Below the pieces are notes generated by a model that was given only the letters and a program-made list of their open reading frames with translations, was not told where the DNA came from and did not search any database. This document shows positions 53,620 to 62,032 of a stretch of DNA of 64,000 nucleotides, piece after piece (positions within the stretch are counted from its first letter, which is position 1; the number at the start of each line of letters is the position of its first letter). Source of the DNA: Bacteriovoracaceae bacterium (GTDB taxonomy: Bacteria > Bdellovibrionota > Bacteriovoracia > Bacteriovoracales > Bacteriovoracaceae); NCBI GenBank assembly GCA_048270185.1, contig JBLWTJ010000002.1:352001-416000 (forward strand), written 5' to 3'. Both the position numbers and the translations under genes were made by a program.

Positions 53620-54161
53620 TATTTCCTAGCCTTTTTAATTTTTAAAAGTATCTCTTTTTCAAGAGCTTCCATAATATCTTCTTCTTTTTGAGAAATTTCG
53701 TGATCATATCCTAACAAATGCAGGAGTCCATGACAAAACAAGTGAATAACCTCTTGTTCGAGATTTAGATCAAATTCCTTTGCTTGCTTGGCCGCGACAT
53801 TACGACTGATAATGATGTCCCCTAACATAACCGGTCCAGGCAGAACGAAATCCGTACTATCAGGTCTAAGAGAATCATACATAGGGAATGAAAGAACATC
53901 TGTCGTCTTATTTTTACCTCGATGATCGCGGTTAATTTGCTTCATACGAGTATCACCGCAAAAATGGAGATCGACTTCAATCTCAACGTGAGTTTTCTTA
54001 TTTAAACAAGTATTTCTTGAGTAAAGAAAATTGCTTAAGACAATCAGTGAGTCTTTTATGATTTTTTCGCACTTGCTTAGCCCCCAAGTCGAGCGTGCGT
54101 TATCTGTAATATTCACAGATAAACGAGAGTTATTCACAGAAATGGATTTGCGTTGAGTCAT
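53619..54161 (-). CDS. ybeY: rRNA maturation endoribonuclease YbeY
   Basis: N...R.KN.TTDVLSFP, LGDI.IS, HGLLHLLGYDH. Confidence 0.96.
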   Translation of the reverse strand: MTQRKSISVNNSRLSVNITDNARSTWGLSKCEKIIKDSLIVLSNFLYSRNTCLNKKTHVEIEVDLHFCGDTRMKQINRDHRGKNKTTDVLSFPMYDSLRPDSTDFVLPGPVMLGDIIISRNVAAKQAKEFDLNLEQEVIHLFCHGLLHLLGYDHEISQKEEDIMEALEKEILLKIKKARK

Positions 54162-54225
54162 TATTTCTTTTCTCTTTGCTTGGGTGTAGTATTAATTCAT
54201 TAGATTATATTACTAAGGCCAAGTT

Positions 54226-55029
54226 ATGTCACTAAGCGAGATGGAAAGATTAAGAGAAGTTGTCGCCAAATTAAGAGATCCAAAGGATGGTTGTCCTTGG
54301 GACTTAAAGCAGACACATCGATCTCTTCTAAAGTATTTAATGGAAGAATCTTATGAGTACATGCATGCTGTCGAAGAGAATAATTTCTCAAAGATGGAAG
54401 ATGAACTAGGAGACGTACTCTTACAAGTTGTCCTCCACTCTCAGCTAGCGAGTGAAGTTGGTAAGTTTGATTTAAACTCGGTTGCTAAAACTATCGCAGA
54501 CAAAATGGTTCGTCGCCACCCCCATGTTTTTACGGAAAATAAGGCCCGCGATATCAAAGAAATTAAAGACAACTGGGAAGCTATCAAGAAAGCCGAAAAG
54601 GCAAATGAAGATAGTCTTAAGAAGTACGAAATTTGTGATGAACTCCTTTCTTTTCCTGCCCTAACAAGCTCGGCCAAGATCGGTAAGAAAACTAACAAAA
54701 TAAACTTTGACTGGGAAGATTACACACAAGTAATGTATAAAGTCGAAGAAGAGTGGCAAGAGTTAAAAGAAGAAATTACTCCAGGACGTGAAATGAATAA
54801 AGAGCGCGTTCAAGAAGAATTAGGAGATCTTCTCTTCTCTGTTGCTCAACTTGCAAGACATCTGGAACTTGATCCAGAAGTAACGCTTCGAGAAGCAAAC
54901 CTTAAGTTTAAGAGAAGGTTTAATCAACTTGAAGATATTGCAAGAGATGAAGGAATAAGTATTCGCGAAAGTTCTCAATCTGAACTTGAAACCCTTTGGT
55001 CGCGTGTCAAAGAAATAGAAAAAAGTTAA
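54226..55029 (+). CDS. mazG: Nucleoside triphosphate pyrophosphohydrolase MazG
   Basis: LRDP..GCPWD..QT, EE.YE, ELGD.L.QVV.H, RRHPHVF. Confidence 0.96.
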   Translation: MSLSEMERLREVVAKLRDPKDGCPWDLKQTHRSLLKYLMEESYEYMHAVEENNFSKMEDELGDVLLQVVLHSQLASEVGKFDLNSVAKTIADKMVRRHPHVFTENKARDIKEIKDNWEAIKKAEKANEDSLKKYEICDELLSFPALTSSAKIGKKTNKINFDWEDYTQVMYKVEEEWQELKEEITPGREMNKERVQEELGDLLFSVAQLARHLELDPEVTLREANLKFKRRFNQLEDIARDEGISIRESSQSELETLWSRVKEIEKS

Positions 55030-55033
55030 CGGT

Positions 55034-55684
55034 ATGAAAGCATCACCAATCAAACTTAAAAAGAATTTTGTAACATTAAAACAAGAAAAGCGTCTTTATC
55101 AAATGCCTTGTCCCATTGTTGGACTAACGGGTGGTATCGCCACAGGTAAATCAACAGTCAGTAAGAGATTACATGAATTAAATTTCCCAATTGTTGATGC
55201 CGATGTACTTGTCAAAGAGGTTTATAAATCAAAAGAGTCTCTAGAGCATTTGAGAAAATATTATTCACAAGTTGTTAATGAAGATAACTCAATTAATTTT
55301 AAGTTATTAAGAGAATATTTCTTTCAAGATATTCAGATTCAAAATGATATTGAAAGTTTAATATATCGCCAATTACCTGATGTTTTTCTAAAAGCGTATA
55401 AAGAGCTAGGTTCACCAAAAGTTCTTATCTATGATGTACCTCTTCTCTTCGAAAAGAATTTAGATTCATTTATCGACTTCAAGGCCGTCGTCTATTGTCC
55501 TCGTGCAAAGCAGATGGAGCGTTTAATGGAAAGAGATGGGATAACAAAAGATCTAGCCTGTAAGATTCTCTCTAAGCAAATCGATATTGAAGAAAAGGCA
55601 AAGAGTGCTGACTTTGTTATCGATAACTCAGGAAAGCCAGAAGAGCTTAACTTGAATATGTTCTTAGAACACTTTGACTTATAG
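55034..55684 (+). CDS. coaE: Dephospho-CoA kinase
   Basis: GLTGGIATGKSTV, DAD, DVPLLFE, RL..RD, DFVIDN. Confidence 0.95.
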   Translation: MKASPIKLKKNFVTLKQEKRLYQMPCPIVGLTGGIATGKSTVSKRLHELNFPIVDADVLVKEVYKSKESLEHLRKYYSQVVNEDNSINFKLLREYFFQDIQIQNDIESLIYRQLPDVFLKAYKELGSPKVLIYDVPLLFEKNLDSFIDFKAVVYCPRAKQMERLMERDGITKDLACKILSKQIDIEEKAKSADFVIDNSGKPEELNLNMFLEHFDL

Positions 55685-55686
55685 TT

Positions 55687-56526
55687 TTAAAATTTAAAAA
55701 TATTAACGTGATCAGAATGAGCGATATCAGGACAATCAAATACGCTTCTGTAAACATTGGTGTATTTACTCCATGGCCCTTTCACTTCTTGGCATAGTAC
55801 TAGATTTGCAGTCTTGTTCTTAGAGGGTGACTTTTGAATCTTATTCATTACACTTTGAAATCCTTCAGGACTTGCAAAGTGCAGTAATCTTCTTTCTCCA
55901 AGATGAAGCTTATCAATCTCATATTCCATCTTAGACAATGATTTTATTGTTTTAAAATTTCGATAACATTCTATTCGAGATGAATAAATTGCATCTTTTA
56001 AGTTATGAGAAGCTGAAAAACCATAAATATATTTTGAGTCTTGTTTATCAAAGACAATCGTAAAATATAAACCTAGTTCATTATCAAAATAAATAGCCGT
56101 CTTACTCTCTTCACTATAAGTGAGTTTTATATCGCCATTCCAAAAGGAAAGAAGTGCCCATCGTTCAAAAGCTTCTTGTATTGAGTTTCTCCTAGCAATA
56201 TTTCGAAGAATATTTGGATAAGCACTAAAACCAGAAGAATCGTTAATAATATCGTAGCCGAGATTGTTGTCTCCTTTAGTCTGAGAATAGGCCCATCTTT
56301 CTAGCGCCTCAGAAATAGATTTCATTAAAGCAACGACTTTATTTGAAGAACTCCCCATCCCGGCGGCATTAGAATGTATTTCATAATGAGGTTTGTATTT
56401 TAAGAGATCTTCATTCAGATATGCTAAGGCCTCAAAGCCTAACTCATCTTGAAGAATTTCTCTCTTCCGAACAATAATTCTTTCAAAAACTTCTTTATTA
56501 GAAAGTAGCTTGAAGTATTGAAGCAT
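55687..56526 (-). CDS. Short stand-alone YcaO-like protein
   Basis: G.G......A..S..EALERW, DSSGFSA, QEAFERW and YG.SA......A.....E..R, in the order of the YcaO ATP-binding motifs; ATG at 56526 is 1 nt after the upstream stop. Confidence 0.75.
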   Translation of the reverse strand: MLQYFKLLSNKEVFERIIVRKREILQDELGFEALAYLNEDLLKYKPHYEIHSNAAGMGSSSNKVVALMKSISEALERWAYSQTKGDNNLGYDIINDSSGFSAYPNILRNIARRNSIQEAFERWALLSFWNGDIKLTYSEESKTAIYFDNELGLYFTIVFDKQDSKYIYGFSASHNLKDAIYSSRIECYRNFKTIKSLSKMEYEIDKLHLGERRLLHFASPEGFQSVMNKIQKSPSKNKTANLVLCQEVKGPWSKYTNVYRSVFDCPDIAHSDHVNIFKF

Positions 56527-56527
56527 A

Positions 56528-57997
56528 TTAATTTGAGCCAAGCCAATTGAAGTCTACAGGTGGTTGTAGCAAATTTATCTTACTAATATCAATAAAGGAT
56601 TTATAGAGTAAGCCATTTGAGAAATTAGCAATTGGCCAAATAACGGCTTGATCCCACAATTTTTGATTTACCTTTTGAATATCGATCTTTCCTTCTAGTA
56701 GAGGAGAAATACTTCCATCGATATCAGGTAAGCGAATTCCCTTAGATGATCGAAACATGAATCGAATATCATCATCTGGTTCTTCCACATGAACGCCGGT
56801 ATGGATGCCACATAGATCTAATTCATATTCTTTTAAACCTGATGCAAACTCCTTTCCTACAGTTTTTAGTGGTACGTCTTTACGTTCTGGTTTTGCCCCG
56901 ACTAAATTAGTGTTTAAGATGGCACTATCTAAGCTTTTCCAAAACTTGAAGTCACTATTGGTAAAATTTCTAAAATTTAATCGTGCGTTTTTAGTTTTTA
57001 ATTCATTTTCATTTGATACACTTGAATCAACAATCGACACTCCTTTAATTGAGCGTGGAAAGAAAGTTCGAAGAACGGCCATACCATCTTCTTCCATTTT
57101 CTTGTAAATGTGATCACGTATAATTCGACGATTTTCAATATTGTAGCAGATGCTATCAGGATGACTCCAAGACTGACATCTTAGGTACGCAATCCCTGTC
57201 TCGACACCACCAGAGAATTGATAAGCAGAACTCGCATCGACATTAATTGAAGTCCCTCGCTTTAAATCAACATTGTCTTTTTGACTTGAATCCCAAGTAA
57301 TAAGAATTTTTTCAAATCTACTTGAGTGACCAAAAGAATCAATATCTTGTCGTAACTTTAAAGTCAGCTTTTTATCCTCAAGACTTGGTTCCGCTACAAT
57401 ATATGATCCAGATGAAATTGGAGATAAATTTGCGATCCACTTTCCACTTTCATCATAATCTTTAGAGTTAGTTATTCCATAAATGCCAAAACTAGCGAAA
57501 TTAGTAAATCTCTCAACAGGCTTTATAAAATTGAATGTAACGCTTTCATTATCGTACACAAGACCTGCAATTTCCGAATTAATAGAATTTATATTTTCAT
57601 AACCTACAAGGAGATCTAGAAACTCATCTTTTGATTTCTTCTCTTTTAGTAAAAGAGCAATACGAGTGAAAGATTTAACAACCTCTTTTGGTCCTAGTAC
57701 ATCTCCATTAGAGAATTTTAGATTAGGCTTTATCTTAATTATCCACTTTGTCTTATCTTGATTAGTTGTCCAAGATTCAGCAATGTGCCCTACTGGACCT
57801 TCTGCAGAATAAAGTGTTGTTAAGCTAGCAAAAACCGAACGATAAACAGCATGGTGAGCTGAGTAGTCATACTCAAGCGGGTCACTGGAATAGGGAGCTG
57901 TTGGATAGAAGAATGTAATTTCTTTATTTTTTATTGTCATACAACCCGTTAATAAAAGTACAAAGAAACACAGTAAGGAATTTTTAACCCCATTCAT
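56528..57997 (-). CDS. Family 5 (OppA/DppA-like) solute-binding lipoprotein
   Basis: Lipobox LTGC; DP, IAESW..N.D...W...I.PNLKFSNG..L....V..SF, PI.SG.Y. Confidence 0.85.
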   Translation of the reverse strand: MNGVKNSLLCFFVLLLTGCMTIKNKEITFFYPTAPYSSDPLEYDYSAHHAVYRSVFASLTTLYSAEGPVGHIAESWTTNQDKTKWIIKIKPNLKFSNGDVLGPKEVVKSFTRIALLLKEKKSKDEFLDLLVGYENINSINSEIAGLVYDNESVTFNFIKPVERFTNFASFGIYGITNSKDYDESGKWIANLSPISSGSYIVAEPSLEDKKLTLKLRQDIDSFGHSSRFEKILITWDSSQKDNVDLKRGTSINVDASSAYQFSGGVETGIAYLRCQSWSHPDSICYNIENRRIIRDHIYKKMEEDGMAVLRTFFPRSIKGVSIVDSSVSNENELKTKNARLNFRNFTNSDFKFWKSLDSAILNTNLVGAKPERKDVPLKTVGKEFASGLKEYELDLCGIHTGVHVEEPDDDIRFMFRSSKGIRLPDIDGSISPLLEGKIDIQKVNQKLWDQAVIWPIANFSNGLLYKSFIDISKINLLQPPVDFNWLGSN

Positions 57998-58250
57998 TTG
58001 TTGTATTTCTCTCTAGAATATCTTTAAGAGGAATTTTAATTCTATCAGACATTTCCTTCAACTGGTCAATAGTCATCTGATCAATTTCCATTTGAATGTC
58101 TTTTAAATCTTTAATTTCTTTCGCTTCTTTATCTTTATGCTTATTCAAGTAATCTTTTAAAGCTTCATCAAGATCAGTTAAAACCACTTCTTGGGCCAGT
58201 GAAGTTAAAGACAATAGCAGAAATAGAATTGAACTAAATAATTTACACAT
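57984..58250 (-). CDS. 88-aa secreted peptide, candidate precursor
   Basis: AGAAGG RBS; signal MCKLFSSILFLLLSLTSLA|; helical K/D/E body; C-terminus ERNTTNEWG; overlaps SBP start by 14 nt. Confidence 0.75.
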   Translation of the reverse strand: MCKLFSSILFLLLSLTSLAQEVVLTDLDEALKDYLNKHKDKEAKEIKDLKDIQMEIDQMTIDQLKEMSDRIKIPLKDILERNTTNEWG

Positions 58251-58332
58251 AATACCTTCTCTCTTTATTAGCGATTCTTGGTGTGATAACAAAACCTAAG
58301 TAGTTGATCAATACAACAAGAAAACTTTACAC

Positions 58333-59703
58333 ATGAAAAAACAAGTAAAATCCAATATTTATCCGTTTTTTGGAATCTTTCTAGTATTCTTTACACTACT
58401 ATCCTTCCAATTTACCTTAAATGAATATGCTAAAAATCAAGCCAATAACGTCAAACAACTTATATCCTATGATCTTGCTATTAACGATTCACTATCGGCT
58501 TCAAAGAAGCTTGCAAATATAGCGGCCAGCTCTCATGCTATCTGTATCATTGCAAAAAATAACAATCATAAATTTTATACTTATGGTAATGAGTGTAAAA
58601 CTAGCTTCTTTTCTAGAACTCTAAATATACAACAAAAAGAAAACCCAAATTACCTTATTACATTAACTGTAAGATTACCTTTTTCTATTGAAATTATCTT
58701 TACCCTGCTTGTAATAGTTGTTGTTATTTCAACTTTCCTACTTTCAAAATACGCACGTAAACTAAACCTACAAATAATTGAAGCTGAACTTGAGAAAAAA
58801 TCGGCCCTCATCAAGCTTTCATCTAAAATAGCTCATGATATTAGAAGCCCTATTATTGCCTTAAGACAGTCTTTGAAAAATAATAGTAAAGAACTTGCAT
58901 TAAGTTCATTAGAAATGATTGAAGGGATTGCAGACCAACTTTTAGATGAAAGAAAGAAAGGCATTAACTCAGTCATTGAAGTTTCTAAAGTTGTTACTGA
59001 AGTTATCTCTGAGAAGTCATTAACTCATAAGAATATCACTATCATTAATAGTATTAAGAATAATCCAAAAGTCATAGCTAATCGAATCAAGATTAAATCT
59101 ATCCTATCTAATCTTCTAAATAACTCGATTGAAGCTGGAGCGACAAAGATTGAGATCGAAACGTCCGAATCAACGACTATTAACTTAGAAATTAGAGATA
59201 ATGGACCAGGCTTTCCCGATTCAGTACTAAAGTCTTTTACAACAAATACTCCACTTGGAACAAAGAAAGGAAGTAATGCAATAGGACTGTTTACTGCAAA
59301 AGAGTACGCAGAGAGTATTGGCGCAAAGGTTAATATCTCAAATAATAAAGGCCACGCTCTAGTAGAATTTAGCTTTCAAATCGTTCCTAACGAAAATAAG
59401 CAAACTGTACTTATCGATGATGATCGAATCAACCGAGCAACCTGGGAAATGTCCTTCAAAAAAGAAAATTTAAAGCTGATTACATTTGGATCCACAAAAG
59501 AGTTCTTACAATCTCCACCAGATAAAGACAGTATTATCTATATCGATTCAGATCTTGGAGAAAGTATTTCAGGCCAAGATTTCGCTAAGAAACTATTCAA
59601 TGACGGCTACAAGAATCTTCATCTAGCAACAGGCTACTCTTCTGATGATTTTAAAGAATATACATTTTTAAAGTCGATAATTGGTAAAACACCACCGATA
59701 TAA
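58333..59703 (+). CDS. Membrane hybrid histidine kinase with C-terminal receiver domain
   Basis: Two TMs; H-box IAHDIRSP, N-box NLLNNSIEA, DNGPG, IGL; receiver LIDDD...IYIDSDL...ATG...K. Confidence 0.9.
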   Translation: MKKQVKSNIYPFFGIFLVFFTLLSFQFTLNEYAKNQANNVKQLISYDLAINDSLSASKKLANIAASSHAICIIAKNNNHKFYTYGNECKTSFFSRTLNIQQKENPNYLITLTVRLPFSIEIIFTLLVIVVVISTFLLSKYARKLNLQIIEAELEKKSALIKLSSKIAHDIRSPIIALRQSLKNNSKELALSSLEMIEGIADQLLDERKKGINSVIEVSKVVTEVISEKSLTHKNITIINSIKNNPKVIANRIKIKSILSNLLNNSIEAGATKIEIETSESTTINLEIRDNGPGFPDSVLKSFTTNTPLGTKKGSNAIGLFTAKEYAESIGAKVNISNNKGHALVEFSFQIVPNENKQTVLIDDDRINRATWEMSFKKENLKLITFGSTKEFLQSPPDKDSIIYIDSDLGESISGQDFAKKLFNDGYKNLHLATGYSSDDFKEYTFLKSIIGKTPPI

Positions 59704-59728
59704 AAAAGGCTCCATTAGGAGCCTTTTT
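59702..59728. terminator. Bidirectional intrinsic terminator
   Basis: AAAAAGGCTCC-atta-GGAGCCTTTTT. Confidence 0.85.
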
Positions 59729-59731
59729 ATT

Positions 59732-62032
59732 TTATAAAATTGGATTATTATCTGCGACGGTTTCTTCAATCTCTCCATTTTGAGAGCGAAGATTTTGGAA
59801 GCTTCCATACAGTCCCTTAAGAGACATAATTAGTTCCTCATCTTCTTCCTGAGCAAAGCGTGATAGATGCTGAGATTCAGAAGCAACTTCATTCATTTCA
59901 CTTCTTATGGCCTTAAACGTATCTTTTATTTGTGATACATTTGGCACCTCTTTACTATCCATGATGATTTGTACTTTTGACAGTCCGACATCTAGTTGTG
60001 TTGAAACTTTTGAGAAGTGGCTTAGTGTTGAGTTAAAGTCTCTAAGCTCTCCCGCAAATTTATCAAGAGTTGCACTTGAAGCGGTCCCTCTTTGCATTTG
60101 ATCGACAACCTGTGAACTTCTTGCTCTAAAGAGCTCAACCTGTGACTTAAGAGATTTAAATTGATCTCTCGATTTTACAAGTCCGGCAAAGGCCATTTTA
60201 TTTTCATTGATAATCTCAACGATTTCACCTGAGCGAGTTGCAAGTTCAACTTCTTCATTAAAGAGACGATTACTCATCTCAATCATATAGCGATTCATTT
60301 CTTCGAATTTCGCTCTCATTTCAACAACAGAGATGATTTTATCTTTTGCTACCTTGAAACGATTAATAGCATCTTTTTGAAGATCTTTTTGTCCTTCAAA
60401 AATAATTCTTACATCATCAATAATCTTATATTGTTCAAAAAGATTATTCTCAAGAAGCTCTATTTCTTTTAAGAAAGATGCTTTTTGCCCAAGGAAGTGA
60501 TCATTTACATTTGTGAACTTAGCGTAGACGTGATCAATACCTGCGGATGTAAAATCTTGCTGTAACTTCTCTCTTATTTCACCAGAGAAATTTCCATCGA
60601 TTAGAGATTCAAGAGACTTCACAACAGGAGAGACAACGGCTTTCATTTGGTTTGAAAGTGTTTCTTCTAAACTTCTTAGAGGATAGAAGATAACCATAAT
60701 TCTCTTTTGGTCAGCGTATTCAACAGGCGAAACATACATTTCAAAAGGTGCTGCTTCACTAGAGCTTTCTGTTTTAACTTGAATTTGATAGATTCCAGCA
60801 ATCCCATCTCTTACAGCACTAATAACAGGATCATTCTCTCCAAGATTCGTAAAAGTACTTAGATAATCCCAAGTGATACTTAGATCTTTCTTTGAGCTAT
60901 CAAGACTCCAGTGCTCATAGAATAATGAGTTGGCCCAAACAGCATTTAGATTTGAATCGAGAAGTAATGAAGAAAAAGGCATCGCATCCTGGAAGATTGA
61001 ACCAAAACTCATACGCTTATGAATATATCCACGATACTTCTCAATTTCTTCTTTGAATGGATGTGACCACTCACCTTCTAAACTTGCTCTTACTGGAATT
61101 AGACCATCTTTAATTAGATCAAGAGAGGCCGTCTCCATTATCTTCTTTGCACGTTTCTCGTTTGAATTTACCACAACAATTCCACCTGCAAGAACAAGAG
61201 TTAACATACCGACGATTGCAATTAGGCCGTATAAAGTTGTTTGAGAAGTTTGATTAAGCTCAATTTTCTGATAAGTAAGTTTTGGACCAAATTTCTCACT
61301 CCAAACTTGATAACTTTTATTCGTACTTTCCCAAAGACTTCCAAAATCACGAAGAGAGTTAAGAGATTTTTCTAATAGATCTAATTCTGTTTTAAGAGTT
61401 CCAAGTCGTATAACAATTAAGTTCTTATCTTCATCAGATAGAACTGATCTCATTGTAACTTTTTCCATATATTCAACGTCACCAACAATTGAAGAATGCA
61501 AGCGCTTCAAATTTCCATAACTATAGAAATTAGAACTCTTCGTTGTGCCGACCGAGATTTTAGTTTTAATCTTATTAGAAACTCTTGTTAGAGTACGCCA
61601 TTGGTTATGAACAACAAAGTTTTGAAACCCAATCATCTTCGTTCTAAGAACATTGATAAGAGTTGATTTATTAGCTGTAGCTGTAATGTCATTAAGCTTT
61701 TTTCTCAACTCTTTAAAATTTTCTTCAAGTTGGTCATACTCACTAATTGCAACGATATTATTTAGTTCACTTACTGAAGATTCAAACCTTTCAAATTCAG
61801 AAATAGCTTCTTTCGTGCGATCAACACTTACAAGTTCCTTGATATTTTCAAGTGCATTTGAATTCTTAACTTCATCAAATTTTGAAGTCGACTCATAGAC
61901 AAGAGTCATTCTTTCAAAATTTGCAGGTCCCTTCTTCCAAAAAGTCCATACACCAAATGAAACTAGCGCAATAGTAATAACGAGAGAGATAGAAAAATAG
62001 ATAAACAGCGGCTTACTGAAACGAAGTTTCAT
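59732..62032 (-). CDS. Two-TM protein with periplasmic helical region, PAS-like segment and long coiled coil (chemoreceptor-like architecture)
   Basis: TMs near residues 9-31 and 267-288; IFQDAMP...LLD.....VWAN..F PAS-like; no canonical MCP hairpin motif. Confidence 0.55.
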   Translation of the reverse strand: MKLRFSKPLFIYFSISLVITIALVSFGVWTFWKKGPANFERMTLVYESTSKFDEVKNSNALENIKELVSVDRTKEAISEFERFESSVSELNNIVAISEYDQLEENFKELRKKLNDITATANKSTLINVLRTKMIGFQNFVVHNQWRTLTRVSNKIKTKISVGTTKSSNFYSYGNLKRLHSSIVGDVEYMEKVTMRSVLSDEDKNLIVIRLGTLKTELDLLEKSLNSLRDFGSLWESTNKSYQVWSEKFGPKLTYQKIELNQTSQTTLYGLIAIVGMLTLVLAGGIVVVNSNEKRAKKIMETASLDLIKDGLIPVRASLEGEWSHPFKEEIEKYRGYIHKRMSFGSIFQDAMPFSSLLLDSNLNAVWANSLFYEHWSLDSSKKDLSITWDYLSTFTNLGENDPVISAVRDGIAGIYQIQVKTESSSEAAPFEMYVSPVEYADQKRIMVIFYPLRSLEETLSNQMKAVVSPVVKSLESLIDGNFSGEIREKLQQDFTSAGIDHVYAKFTNVNDHFLGQKASFLKEIELLENNLFEQYKIIDDVRIIFEGQKDLQKDAINRFKVAKDKIISVVEMRAKFEEMNRYMIEMSNRLFNEEVELATRSGEIVEIINENKMAFAGLVKSRDQFKSLKSQVELFRARSSQVVDQMQRGTASSATLDKFAGELRDFNSTLSHFSKVSTQLDVGLSKVQIIMDSKEVPNVSQIKDTFKAIRSEMNEVASESQHLSRFAQEEDEELIMSLKGLYGSFQNLRSQNGEIEETVADNNPIL

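Follow-up and report, generated by a model that had tools for sequence, protein, structure and literature searches.

Within a 64,000-nt stretch of the genome of a Bacteriovoracaceae bacterium, a marine organism of predatory type (GCA_048270185.1, contig JBLWTJ010000002.1; the whole stretch, G000:C2:352001-416000, is hereafter the window), we found a four-gene cassette encoding a precursor peptide, a solute-binding protein (SBP), a minimal YcaO enzyme and a divergent hybrid sensor kinase. The cassette is probably a mobile make-and-sense module, in which a YcaO-modified, Sec-exported peptide would be sensed by the cassette's own kinase, here via the SBP. A modified-peptide circuit had been suggested in a first-pass annotation of this DNA, and every computable check proposed there came out in favour of it. 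Labels starting with G denote genomes, with L loci, and with X sets of contigs from public runs.

The genes of the cassette recur together in the phylum Bdellovibrionota, a point that the first-pass annotation had proposed to check. At a threshold of 1e-5, the family profile matched 79 of 401 sampled genomes of the phylum, 22 of them strongly, G000 included. The SBP gene adjoins the YcaO gene in 17 of the 21 other strong loci. Nineteen of these 21 loci were informative, the contigs of the remaining two ending too early; all four genes are present in 11 of the 19, and one further locus has the four genes with a precursor start that is probably broken. The kinase is present in 17 of the 19, in two as fragments only. 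The exceptions are G124, G179 and G370, which possess only kinase and YcaO, G218, with YcaO alone, and the decayed locus of G309. Among weaker profile matches, 20 loci were fetched, with the SBP in 17 and the kinase in 17, all genes in one direction.

A second branch was found in Opitutae. The genome scan confirmed 230 relatives, of which 80 were kept (15 of the Bdellovibrionota type and 65 from Opitutae/Verrucomicrobia), and the metagenome scan kept 80 of 291. None of the 65 Opitutae/Verrucomicrobia loci has an adjacent SBP. A divergent kinase is present in 46 of the 50 Opitutae-type loci with enough flank; 36 divergent Opitutae kinases match a beta-propeller profile built from eight of them, and Pfam detected Reg_prop or Y_Y_Y in seven of these eight seeds. 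A leader profile built from 43 precursors matched 124 ORFs at the precursor position, the seeds included, and three elsewhere, among 27,217 ORFs. It covers 54 of the 58 informative Opitutae loci, together with SBP-type precursors such as those of L010, L138 and L173. A LuxR/NarL regulator is encoded in all 32 Opitutae loci with 5.5 kb of flank. The palindrome TAC-N10-GTA, with the same geometry as the NarL 7-2-7 site given in PMC4549865, lies ahead of 32 of 75 Opitutae precursors, most often at -87 to -84 or at -65 to -63, and ahead of 1 of 699 control genes. Precursor, YcaO and sensor kinase are the constant core, a precursor, a modifier-type enzyme and a sensor kinase standing together in one locus.

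In the YcaO tree, the 46 Opitutae-type enzymes form one clade (SH-aLRT 96) nested within the SBP-type sequences, and the YcaO of the window groups with those of L199 and L009. Since the Opitutae clade lies inside SBP-type diversity, a replacement of the sensor seems to have left the coupling to a kinase intact. One transfer with a change of sensor is the simplest reading of these sequences, its direction not being proven. Columns 37, 74, 103, 175 and 284 of the YcaO alignment differ between the two types; they coincide with one clade and are therefore no proof of a substrate switch. Many Opitutae loci, L013 (7052-7855) among them, encode a small kinase-like protein (~260-285 aa) with HATPase 3′ of YcaO.

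The block is a clean 4-kb insertion. As the first-pass annotation had placed it, it lies between coaE (stop at 55684) and a terminator (59703-59728), the sole terminator-like hairpin found within 55500-59900. The coaE site is empty in all five closest same-genus genomes (coaE 81-84% identical), in which the gene of a 766-aa membrane protein comes next. The terminator stands directly 3′ of coaE in four of these five relatives lacking the cassette; it is therefore a pre-existing host element and not the cassette's own, and the insertion parted it from the coaE stop. No target duplication was seen by eye. Both junctions are spanned by public-run contigs (X3, 54000-58326 and 58322-60173; X1, 55337-56319 and 57185-59905), of which X1 may be the source sample of the window itself. 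Chance adjacency and assembly artefact were rejected on the basis of the relatives' loci, the empty sites and the junction-spanning contigs. The family profile matches 3 of 41 relatives, including G000 and one weak match. The impression of an AT-rich block was correct in direction, with a GC content of 33.1% against 36.6% for the genome, but the bias is modest: the coaE flank itself has 33.2%, and 3.8% of the 3,247 4-kb windows of the genome have a GC content equal to or below that of the cassette. In G002, ~200 nt of hairpin-rich sequence (L101:2315-2519) occupies the same coaE site, which may therefore be a repeated insertion point.

When ATG starts are used, the four ORFs and their spacings match the earlier description exactly: the precursor overlaps the SBP gene by 14 nt, the SBP stop is 1 nt from the YcaO ATG, and 82 nt separate the divergent genes (Table 1). 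The longest precursor ORF opens at TTG 58292. A sigma-70 scan gave 14 sites versus 15.6 expected, and the sigma-54 pattern was found on the forward strand of none of the 21 SBP-type or 79 Opitutae-type promoters. No RNA sample holding the cassette is listed among 13 public runs.

Table 1. Features of the cassette and its flanks, in window coordinates
Feature	Position	Strand	Details
coaE, left flank	55034-55684	+	PF01121 E 3e-41; insertion starts directly past the stop
YcaO	55687-56526	-	279 aa from ATG; minimal, stand-alone
SBP	56528-57997	-	489 aa; orphan family-5 solute-binding lipoprotein
Precursor	57984-58250	-	88 aa from ATG 58250; ribosome site GAGAAGG
Divergent promoter spacer	58251-58332		82 nt
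Hybrid sensor kinase	58333-59703	+	456 aa
Intrinsic terminator (host)	59703-59728	+	formerly of coaE, now 3′ of the kinase
766-aa membrane protein	59732-62032		no Pfam match

The assignment of the enzyme to the YcaO fold proved sound, the AlphaFold2 (AF2) model (pLDDT 94), the Foldseek ranks and the superposition on McbD all agreeing. PF02624 matched the YcaO of the window below the Pfam cut-off (E 0.012; 15.4 bits versus 25.7) and is carried by many of its relatives. With the model, Foldseek ranks 1 to 12 were all YcaO structures, and the structural comparison (VIA) gave Z 16.4 and rmsd 4.0 over 249 residues for McbD, Z 14.2 for LynD/TruD and 13.6 for MusD (7u58). In the ESM Atlas the first match scored 0.96, with PF02624 on 47% of members. 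Against PDB sequences, a single-sequence search retrieved nothing relevant, and with the family profile MusD and YcaO came up only at E 0.6-0.9. Judged by its model, the 279-aa gene product is a true, unusually small stand-alone YcaO. No signal peptide was recognised by eye, indicating a cytoplasmic enzyme. Seventy-one related proteins, that of the window among them, are mostly ~295 aa long, and a profile of 69 family proteins retrieved 968 representatives at E 0.001 and, at the stricter 1e-30, 324.

Residues S77, E78, E81, E123, E191 and R194 (numbered from TTG 56541) are kept in 69 of 69 aligned rows, and R82, E126, R127 and S/T102 in 68. The motifs S-E-x-x-E-R, E-x-x-E-R and E-x-x-R, present in 68-69 of the 69 rows, are presumably the Mg-ATP motifs of characterised YcaOs, an assignment supported by alignments to these. 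The C-termini end in hydrophobic-x-F/W in 197 of 205 family proteins and in PxP in none of the 205, and the last residue of the enzyme encoded in the window superposes on Pro396 of McbD. In McbD, ring closure involves Thr148 and the free carboxylate of Pro396, proposed to act as general base (PMC6395948); judged by its motif, S/T102 is probably the equivalent of Thr148. The kept ATP residues, S/T102 and a tail at position 396 suggest that the YcaO is active and that its catalytic C-terminus is altered. TfuA (PF07812) was not found in G000 (95.9% complete); a TfuA-free thioamidation may still be compatible with this enzyme.

The precursor of the window begins with a Sec-type signal peptide (~residues 1-19, with S-L-A ahead of Q20), followed by an acidic/basic helical spacer and the tail N82-T83-T84-N85-E86-W87-G88. 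Its heuristic signal score is 3.5; of 12,562 control small ORFs, 0.7% scored as high. The mature peptide has no Cys, and two Thr in the tail. A search with it found only itself and no other relative; its positional counterpart in G286 (L199:4300-4557) is 29% identical to it in a pairwise comparison (69 aa, E 0.01), with a tail that retains Asn and Trp/Gly and has no Ser, Thr or Cys, hence neither Thr of the precursor in the window.

For comparison of the tails, four wrong automatic picks were removed, two precursors were re-picked by hand, five were added and near-duplicates were dropped, giving 21 SBP-type and 84 Opitutae-type precursors. Cys is present in 78 of the Opitutae-type precursors, with Pro-Cys in 63 and Cys within the last 15 residues in 61 versus a shuffle mean of 40.8. 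Only 4 of the 21 SBP-type precursors have Cys; in their last 15 residues, Ser occurs in 15, Thr in 16, Gly in 20 and Asn in all 21 (shuffle mean 16.6, p 0.005; host background 58%). The tail Asn is a candidate modification site, not an established one. As the precursor in the window has no Cys and Asn is found in 21 of 21 tails, the chemistry of this branch may be new; a literature search combining YcaO, asparagine and pyrimidinone found no paper. Cores are repeated in the precursors of L030, L042, L081, L156 and L180, which suggests that short pieces are excised. The Cys-free Opitutae-type precursors are those of L030, L074, L080, L159, L179 and L183, several being Asp-rich; that of L030 has a repeated core, though a close relative of its YcaO is paired with a precursor that carries Cys.

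The SBP belongs to family 5 (PF00496 E 9e-14; 51.8 bits versus a cut-off of 32.4), in agreement with the first-pass annotation, and is nearest to OppA/MppA. A profile of 26 cassette SBPs matched OppA/MppA best (E 3e-29 to 1e-25); the best match of the single sequence was NikA (E 2e-4), above which the profile ranks peptide binders. The lipobox L-T-G-C19 was read by eye. The protein is one of the two weakest of seven PF00496 matches in the genome, and none of the genome's 11 ABC permease matches adjoins it. An Opp/Dpp importer was rejected, since no permease adjoins the SBP. We propose the SBP as a putative receptor or co-receptor.

The kinase is a membrane hybrid histidine kinase, as first described, according to HATPase_c (E 1e-12), Response_reg (E 0.13), transmembrane (TM) helices and the AF2 model (pLDDT 93). 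Its order is TM1, a periplasmic PAS/Cache-like domain of ~85 aa with conserved C71/C88 (alignment A3), TM2, H168 (AHDIRSP), HATPase and receiver; H168, and D405, T433 and K452 of the receiver, were read by eye. With VIA the sensor domain matched CqsR (Z 9.7), the PAS sensor 3cwf (9.1), WalK (8.1) and CitA (7.5), values that are middling yet come from several independent sensors, and Foldseek found nothing for it at E 0.001. The kinase has no output domain, and the cassette in the window encodes no regulator. A predicted complex of SBP (22-489) and periplasmic domain (28-118) scored 0.00, which is uninformative either way. Across 18 loci, the distances of YcaO, SBP and kinase sensor correlate with one another (rho 0.38-0.61), which shows co-inheritance only.

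In the mechanism that we propose, the precursor would be made with its Sec signal peptide, and the co-transcribed mini-YcaO, with ATP and Mg, would activate, by O-phosphorylation, a backbone amide of the short tail at the C-terminus, onto which a side chain would close a ring with loss of water. In Opitutae the nucleophile would probably be Cys, giving a thiazoline. For the window, conversion of Thr83/84 to a methyloxazoline is a possible outcome and other products (thioamide, amidine or cleavage) are equally possible, with a six-membered cyclic amidine from the Asn side chain somewhat behind them. The modified precursor would be exported by Sec, so that a dedicated exporter is unneeded, and its tail would be trimmed by host proteases. 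The orphan OppA-like lipoprotein would then bind the modified tail and contact the PAS-like domain of the kinase, altering autophosphorylation at H168 and relay via D405; binding of the peptide by the SBP and control of the kinase are suggested by analogy. In Bdellovibrionota the output would go to a regulator that the cassette does not encode, and in Opitutae to the neighbouring NarL/LuxR regulator; the latter probably binds the palindrome ahead of the precursor and would thereby close a feedback loop.

Of the earlier picture of a pheromone-like circuit in a probable predator, the gene set stood; the family extends beyond predators, and no dedicated exporter is encoded. Whether pheromone applies in the sense of a cell-to-cell signal is a matter of inference. 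Rather doubtful is a wider version, in which a widespread Gram-negative pheromone family would comprise a minimal Bdellovibrionota YcaO with an undescribed reaction, the closing of an Asn side chain onto the preceding backbone carbonyl, Sec export and an SBP-gated kinase; the same pair of enzyme and precursor would have passed to Opitutae, changed over to Cys and acquired an unrelated beta-propeller kinase and a NarL feedback loop.

Several observations weigh against a make-and-sense module. A cognate regulator with a site at the precursor promoter is present in Opitutae; neither the window nor the SBP-type loci checked yielded a response regulator, and the 21 SBP-type spacers gave no conserved motif and no enriched word. 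The regulator site in Opitutae shows operon control and not that the peptide is the signal. The precursor of the window did not match the Opitutae leader profile, the excess of tail Asn is modest (a control window gives 11 of 13), and 6 of the 84 Opitutae-type precursors lack Cys. No adjacent precursor was found at L009, L059, L061, L192, L197, L200, L202 and L203, L009 holding one of the two YcaOs nearest to that of the window; in G124 precursor and SBP lie elsewhere, and in G179 no clear precursor stands ahead of the SBP. Furthermore, all the counts include related loci, which are not independent, and the tree is a quick one of 84 rows from which 38 Opitutae-type rows were dropped at random, with no AU test.

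The kinase could instead sense an outside cue, such as a metal, envelope stress or a foreign peptide, and induce a YcaO-modified periplasmic effector (a metallophore or scavenger), the peptide being the output. Bufferins, Sec-exported Cys-modified metal binders under stress control (PMC11626156), are a precedent, and the Cys-bearing Opitutae-type precursors, the NikA match and the regulator site ahead of the precursor also fit. We consider this unlikely, as Cys is rare in the SBP-type precursors, whose Gly/Asn tails are poor metal ligands, the tails, short and highly variable, look more like address labels than like a fixed chelator, peptide binders rank ahead of NikA with the SBP profile, and the SBP is co-transcribed with the precursor and not with the kinase. 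It is less likely still that YcaO forms no ring in the peptide and cleaves it, modifies another protein (SBP or kinase) or merely binds, leaving an unmodified or trimmed signal. For this speak MusD, a structural match titled as an ATP-dependent peptidase, the E. coli YcaO, which modifies a folded protein (PMC13063428), the lack of any peptidase recurring in the cassette and of an adjacent precursor at some loci, and the finding that no single Ser, Thr or Cys residue is common to all tails. Against it, S/T102 and the fixed C-terminus are the elements that McbD uses for ring closure, Pro-Cys and tail Cys are frequent in the Opitutae-type precursors, [ST]-Q-D is shared by seven precursors of the distant group L204-L223, and a nitroreductase-family gene lies 3′ of YcaO in four loci.

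The modified peptide might also remain within the periplasm of the cell that made it, or within an enclosed space (e.g. a prey cell), the kinase reading its retention as envelope integrity or confinement. Sec reaches only the periplasm, no outer-membrane exporter is encoded, and the leaders of L002, L004 and L102 show no clear A-x-A cleavage site. A patchy, mobile distribution and variable tails are not expected of a housekeeping sensor, and Opitutae are, to our knowledge, not known as predators; this private circuit is the least probable of the alternatives.

Compared with described systems, the cassette appears similar to ComQXPA and AgrBDCA in logic, with different parts. It shares with them a precursor, a modifying enzyme and a membrane histidine kinase and, in Opitutae, a NarL-family regulator, as ComA; it differs in its diderm hosts, in YcaO replacing ComQ/AgrB, in the Sec signal peptide, and in sensing via SBP5 and a small PAS kinase or a beta-propeller hybrid kinase. 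Pfam and NCBIfam scans named no ComQ, AgrB or ComP, no further homology test having been made. Modified peptides with membrane histidine kinases are assigned to Gram-positives, and AHL/AI-2 to Gram-negatives, in the review PMC8895600; the cassette looks like a Gram-negative version of a signalling mode known mainly from Gram-positives. Similar to McbD (microcin B17), LynD/TruD and MusD, the enzyme has the fold, the Mg-ATP glutamates, a Thr148-like S/T and a C-terminus at the Pro396 position. However, the family is shorter than the roughly 360-400 aa of stand-alone structures and ends in F-x-F/W, the precursor has a signal peptide and, in the window, no Cys, and no E1/RRE, exporter or TfuA is encoded nearby; the window gene is a YcaO, and the locus is not a classical TOMM/LAP cluster. 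Bufferins likewise have a signal-peptide precursor modified before Sec export and no dedicated exporter, whereas they use an MNIO enzyme with a DUF2063 partner, yield a metal-binding product and are under SigF control, with no SBP or kinase in the available text (PMC11626156). An SBP encoded near a kinase, here with a PAS/Cache-like sensor, recalls CBP-ChiS, LuxP-LuxQ and TorT-TorS, CBP being an SBP_bac_5 protein that controls the kinase ChiS (PMC8050422); in these systems the ligand is a sugar or small molecule and not a peptide from the same operon.

We found no description of the cassette in the open literature, subscription journals and supplements lying outside this scope; supplements of YcaO networks (e.g. 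PMC13063428) could list the family. In the literature surveyed, YcaOs yield antibiotics and other natural products or protein thioamides. If the reading of a make-and-sense module is true, a YcaO-made signal would exist in two diderm phyla and would offer a way of testing how predatory bacteria might perceive kin, density or confinement. The family would also provide one of the smaller stand-alone YcaOs, below the Pfam cut-off, with a changed catalytic C-terminus and Cys-free substrates.

The companions of the cassette are signalling genes, not genes for delivery or immunity. A same-strand ORF lies directly 3′ of YcaO in 75 of the 135 loci with downstream flank, and 33 of these ORFs carry signalling domains (20 HATPase, 8 receiver, 5 PAS alone); four are nitroreductases and one is a trypsin. 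At 1e-8, E1/ThiF, TfuA and ABC exporters were found in none of the 75 and not among recurring neighbours, and the window encodes no E1-like C protein or RRE partner. The nitroreductases (190-200 aa; L059, L061, L160 and L200), with no adjacent SBP or precursor, are possibly ring oxidases.

Related arrangements were also observed. Loci L204-L223 represent a distant mini-YcaO group with co-directional precursor-SBP-YcaO-kinase operons, several of whose YcaOs end in R-x-C-L/I. In G009, of the same genus, L103:4848-10960 is a different cassette with a response regulator-like gene, a 171-aa signal-peptide protein, an SBP, a distant YcaO (C-terminus HPIG) and a kinase. The genome of the window itself harbours a second cassette of the same plan (L001:5838-12800; G000:C2 ~237800-244800), all in one direction, encoding a signal-peptide protein (136 aa, two Cys), a 389-aa YcaO (PF02624 E 8e-10), a 281-aa protein with no Pfam match, an SBP5, a nitroreductase-domain protein and a hybrid kinase. 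A third, canonical YcaO (G000:C1:1004841-1005836, PF02624 E 1e-67) lies inside a 731-aa frame. On the right flank of the cassette, the gene of the 766-aa membrane protein, chemoreceptor-like by eye, follows a fliA-like gene on its 3′ side and is present in all five relatives.

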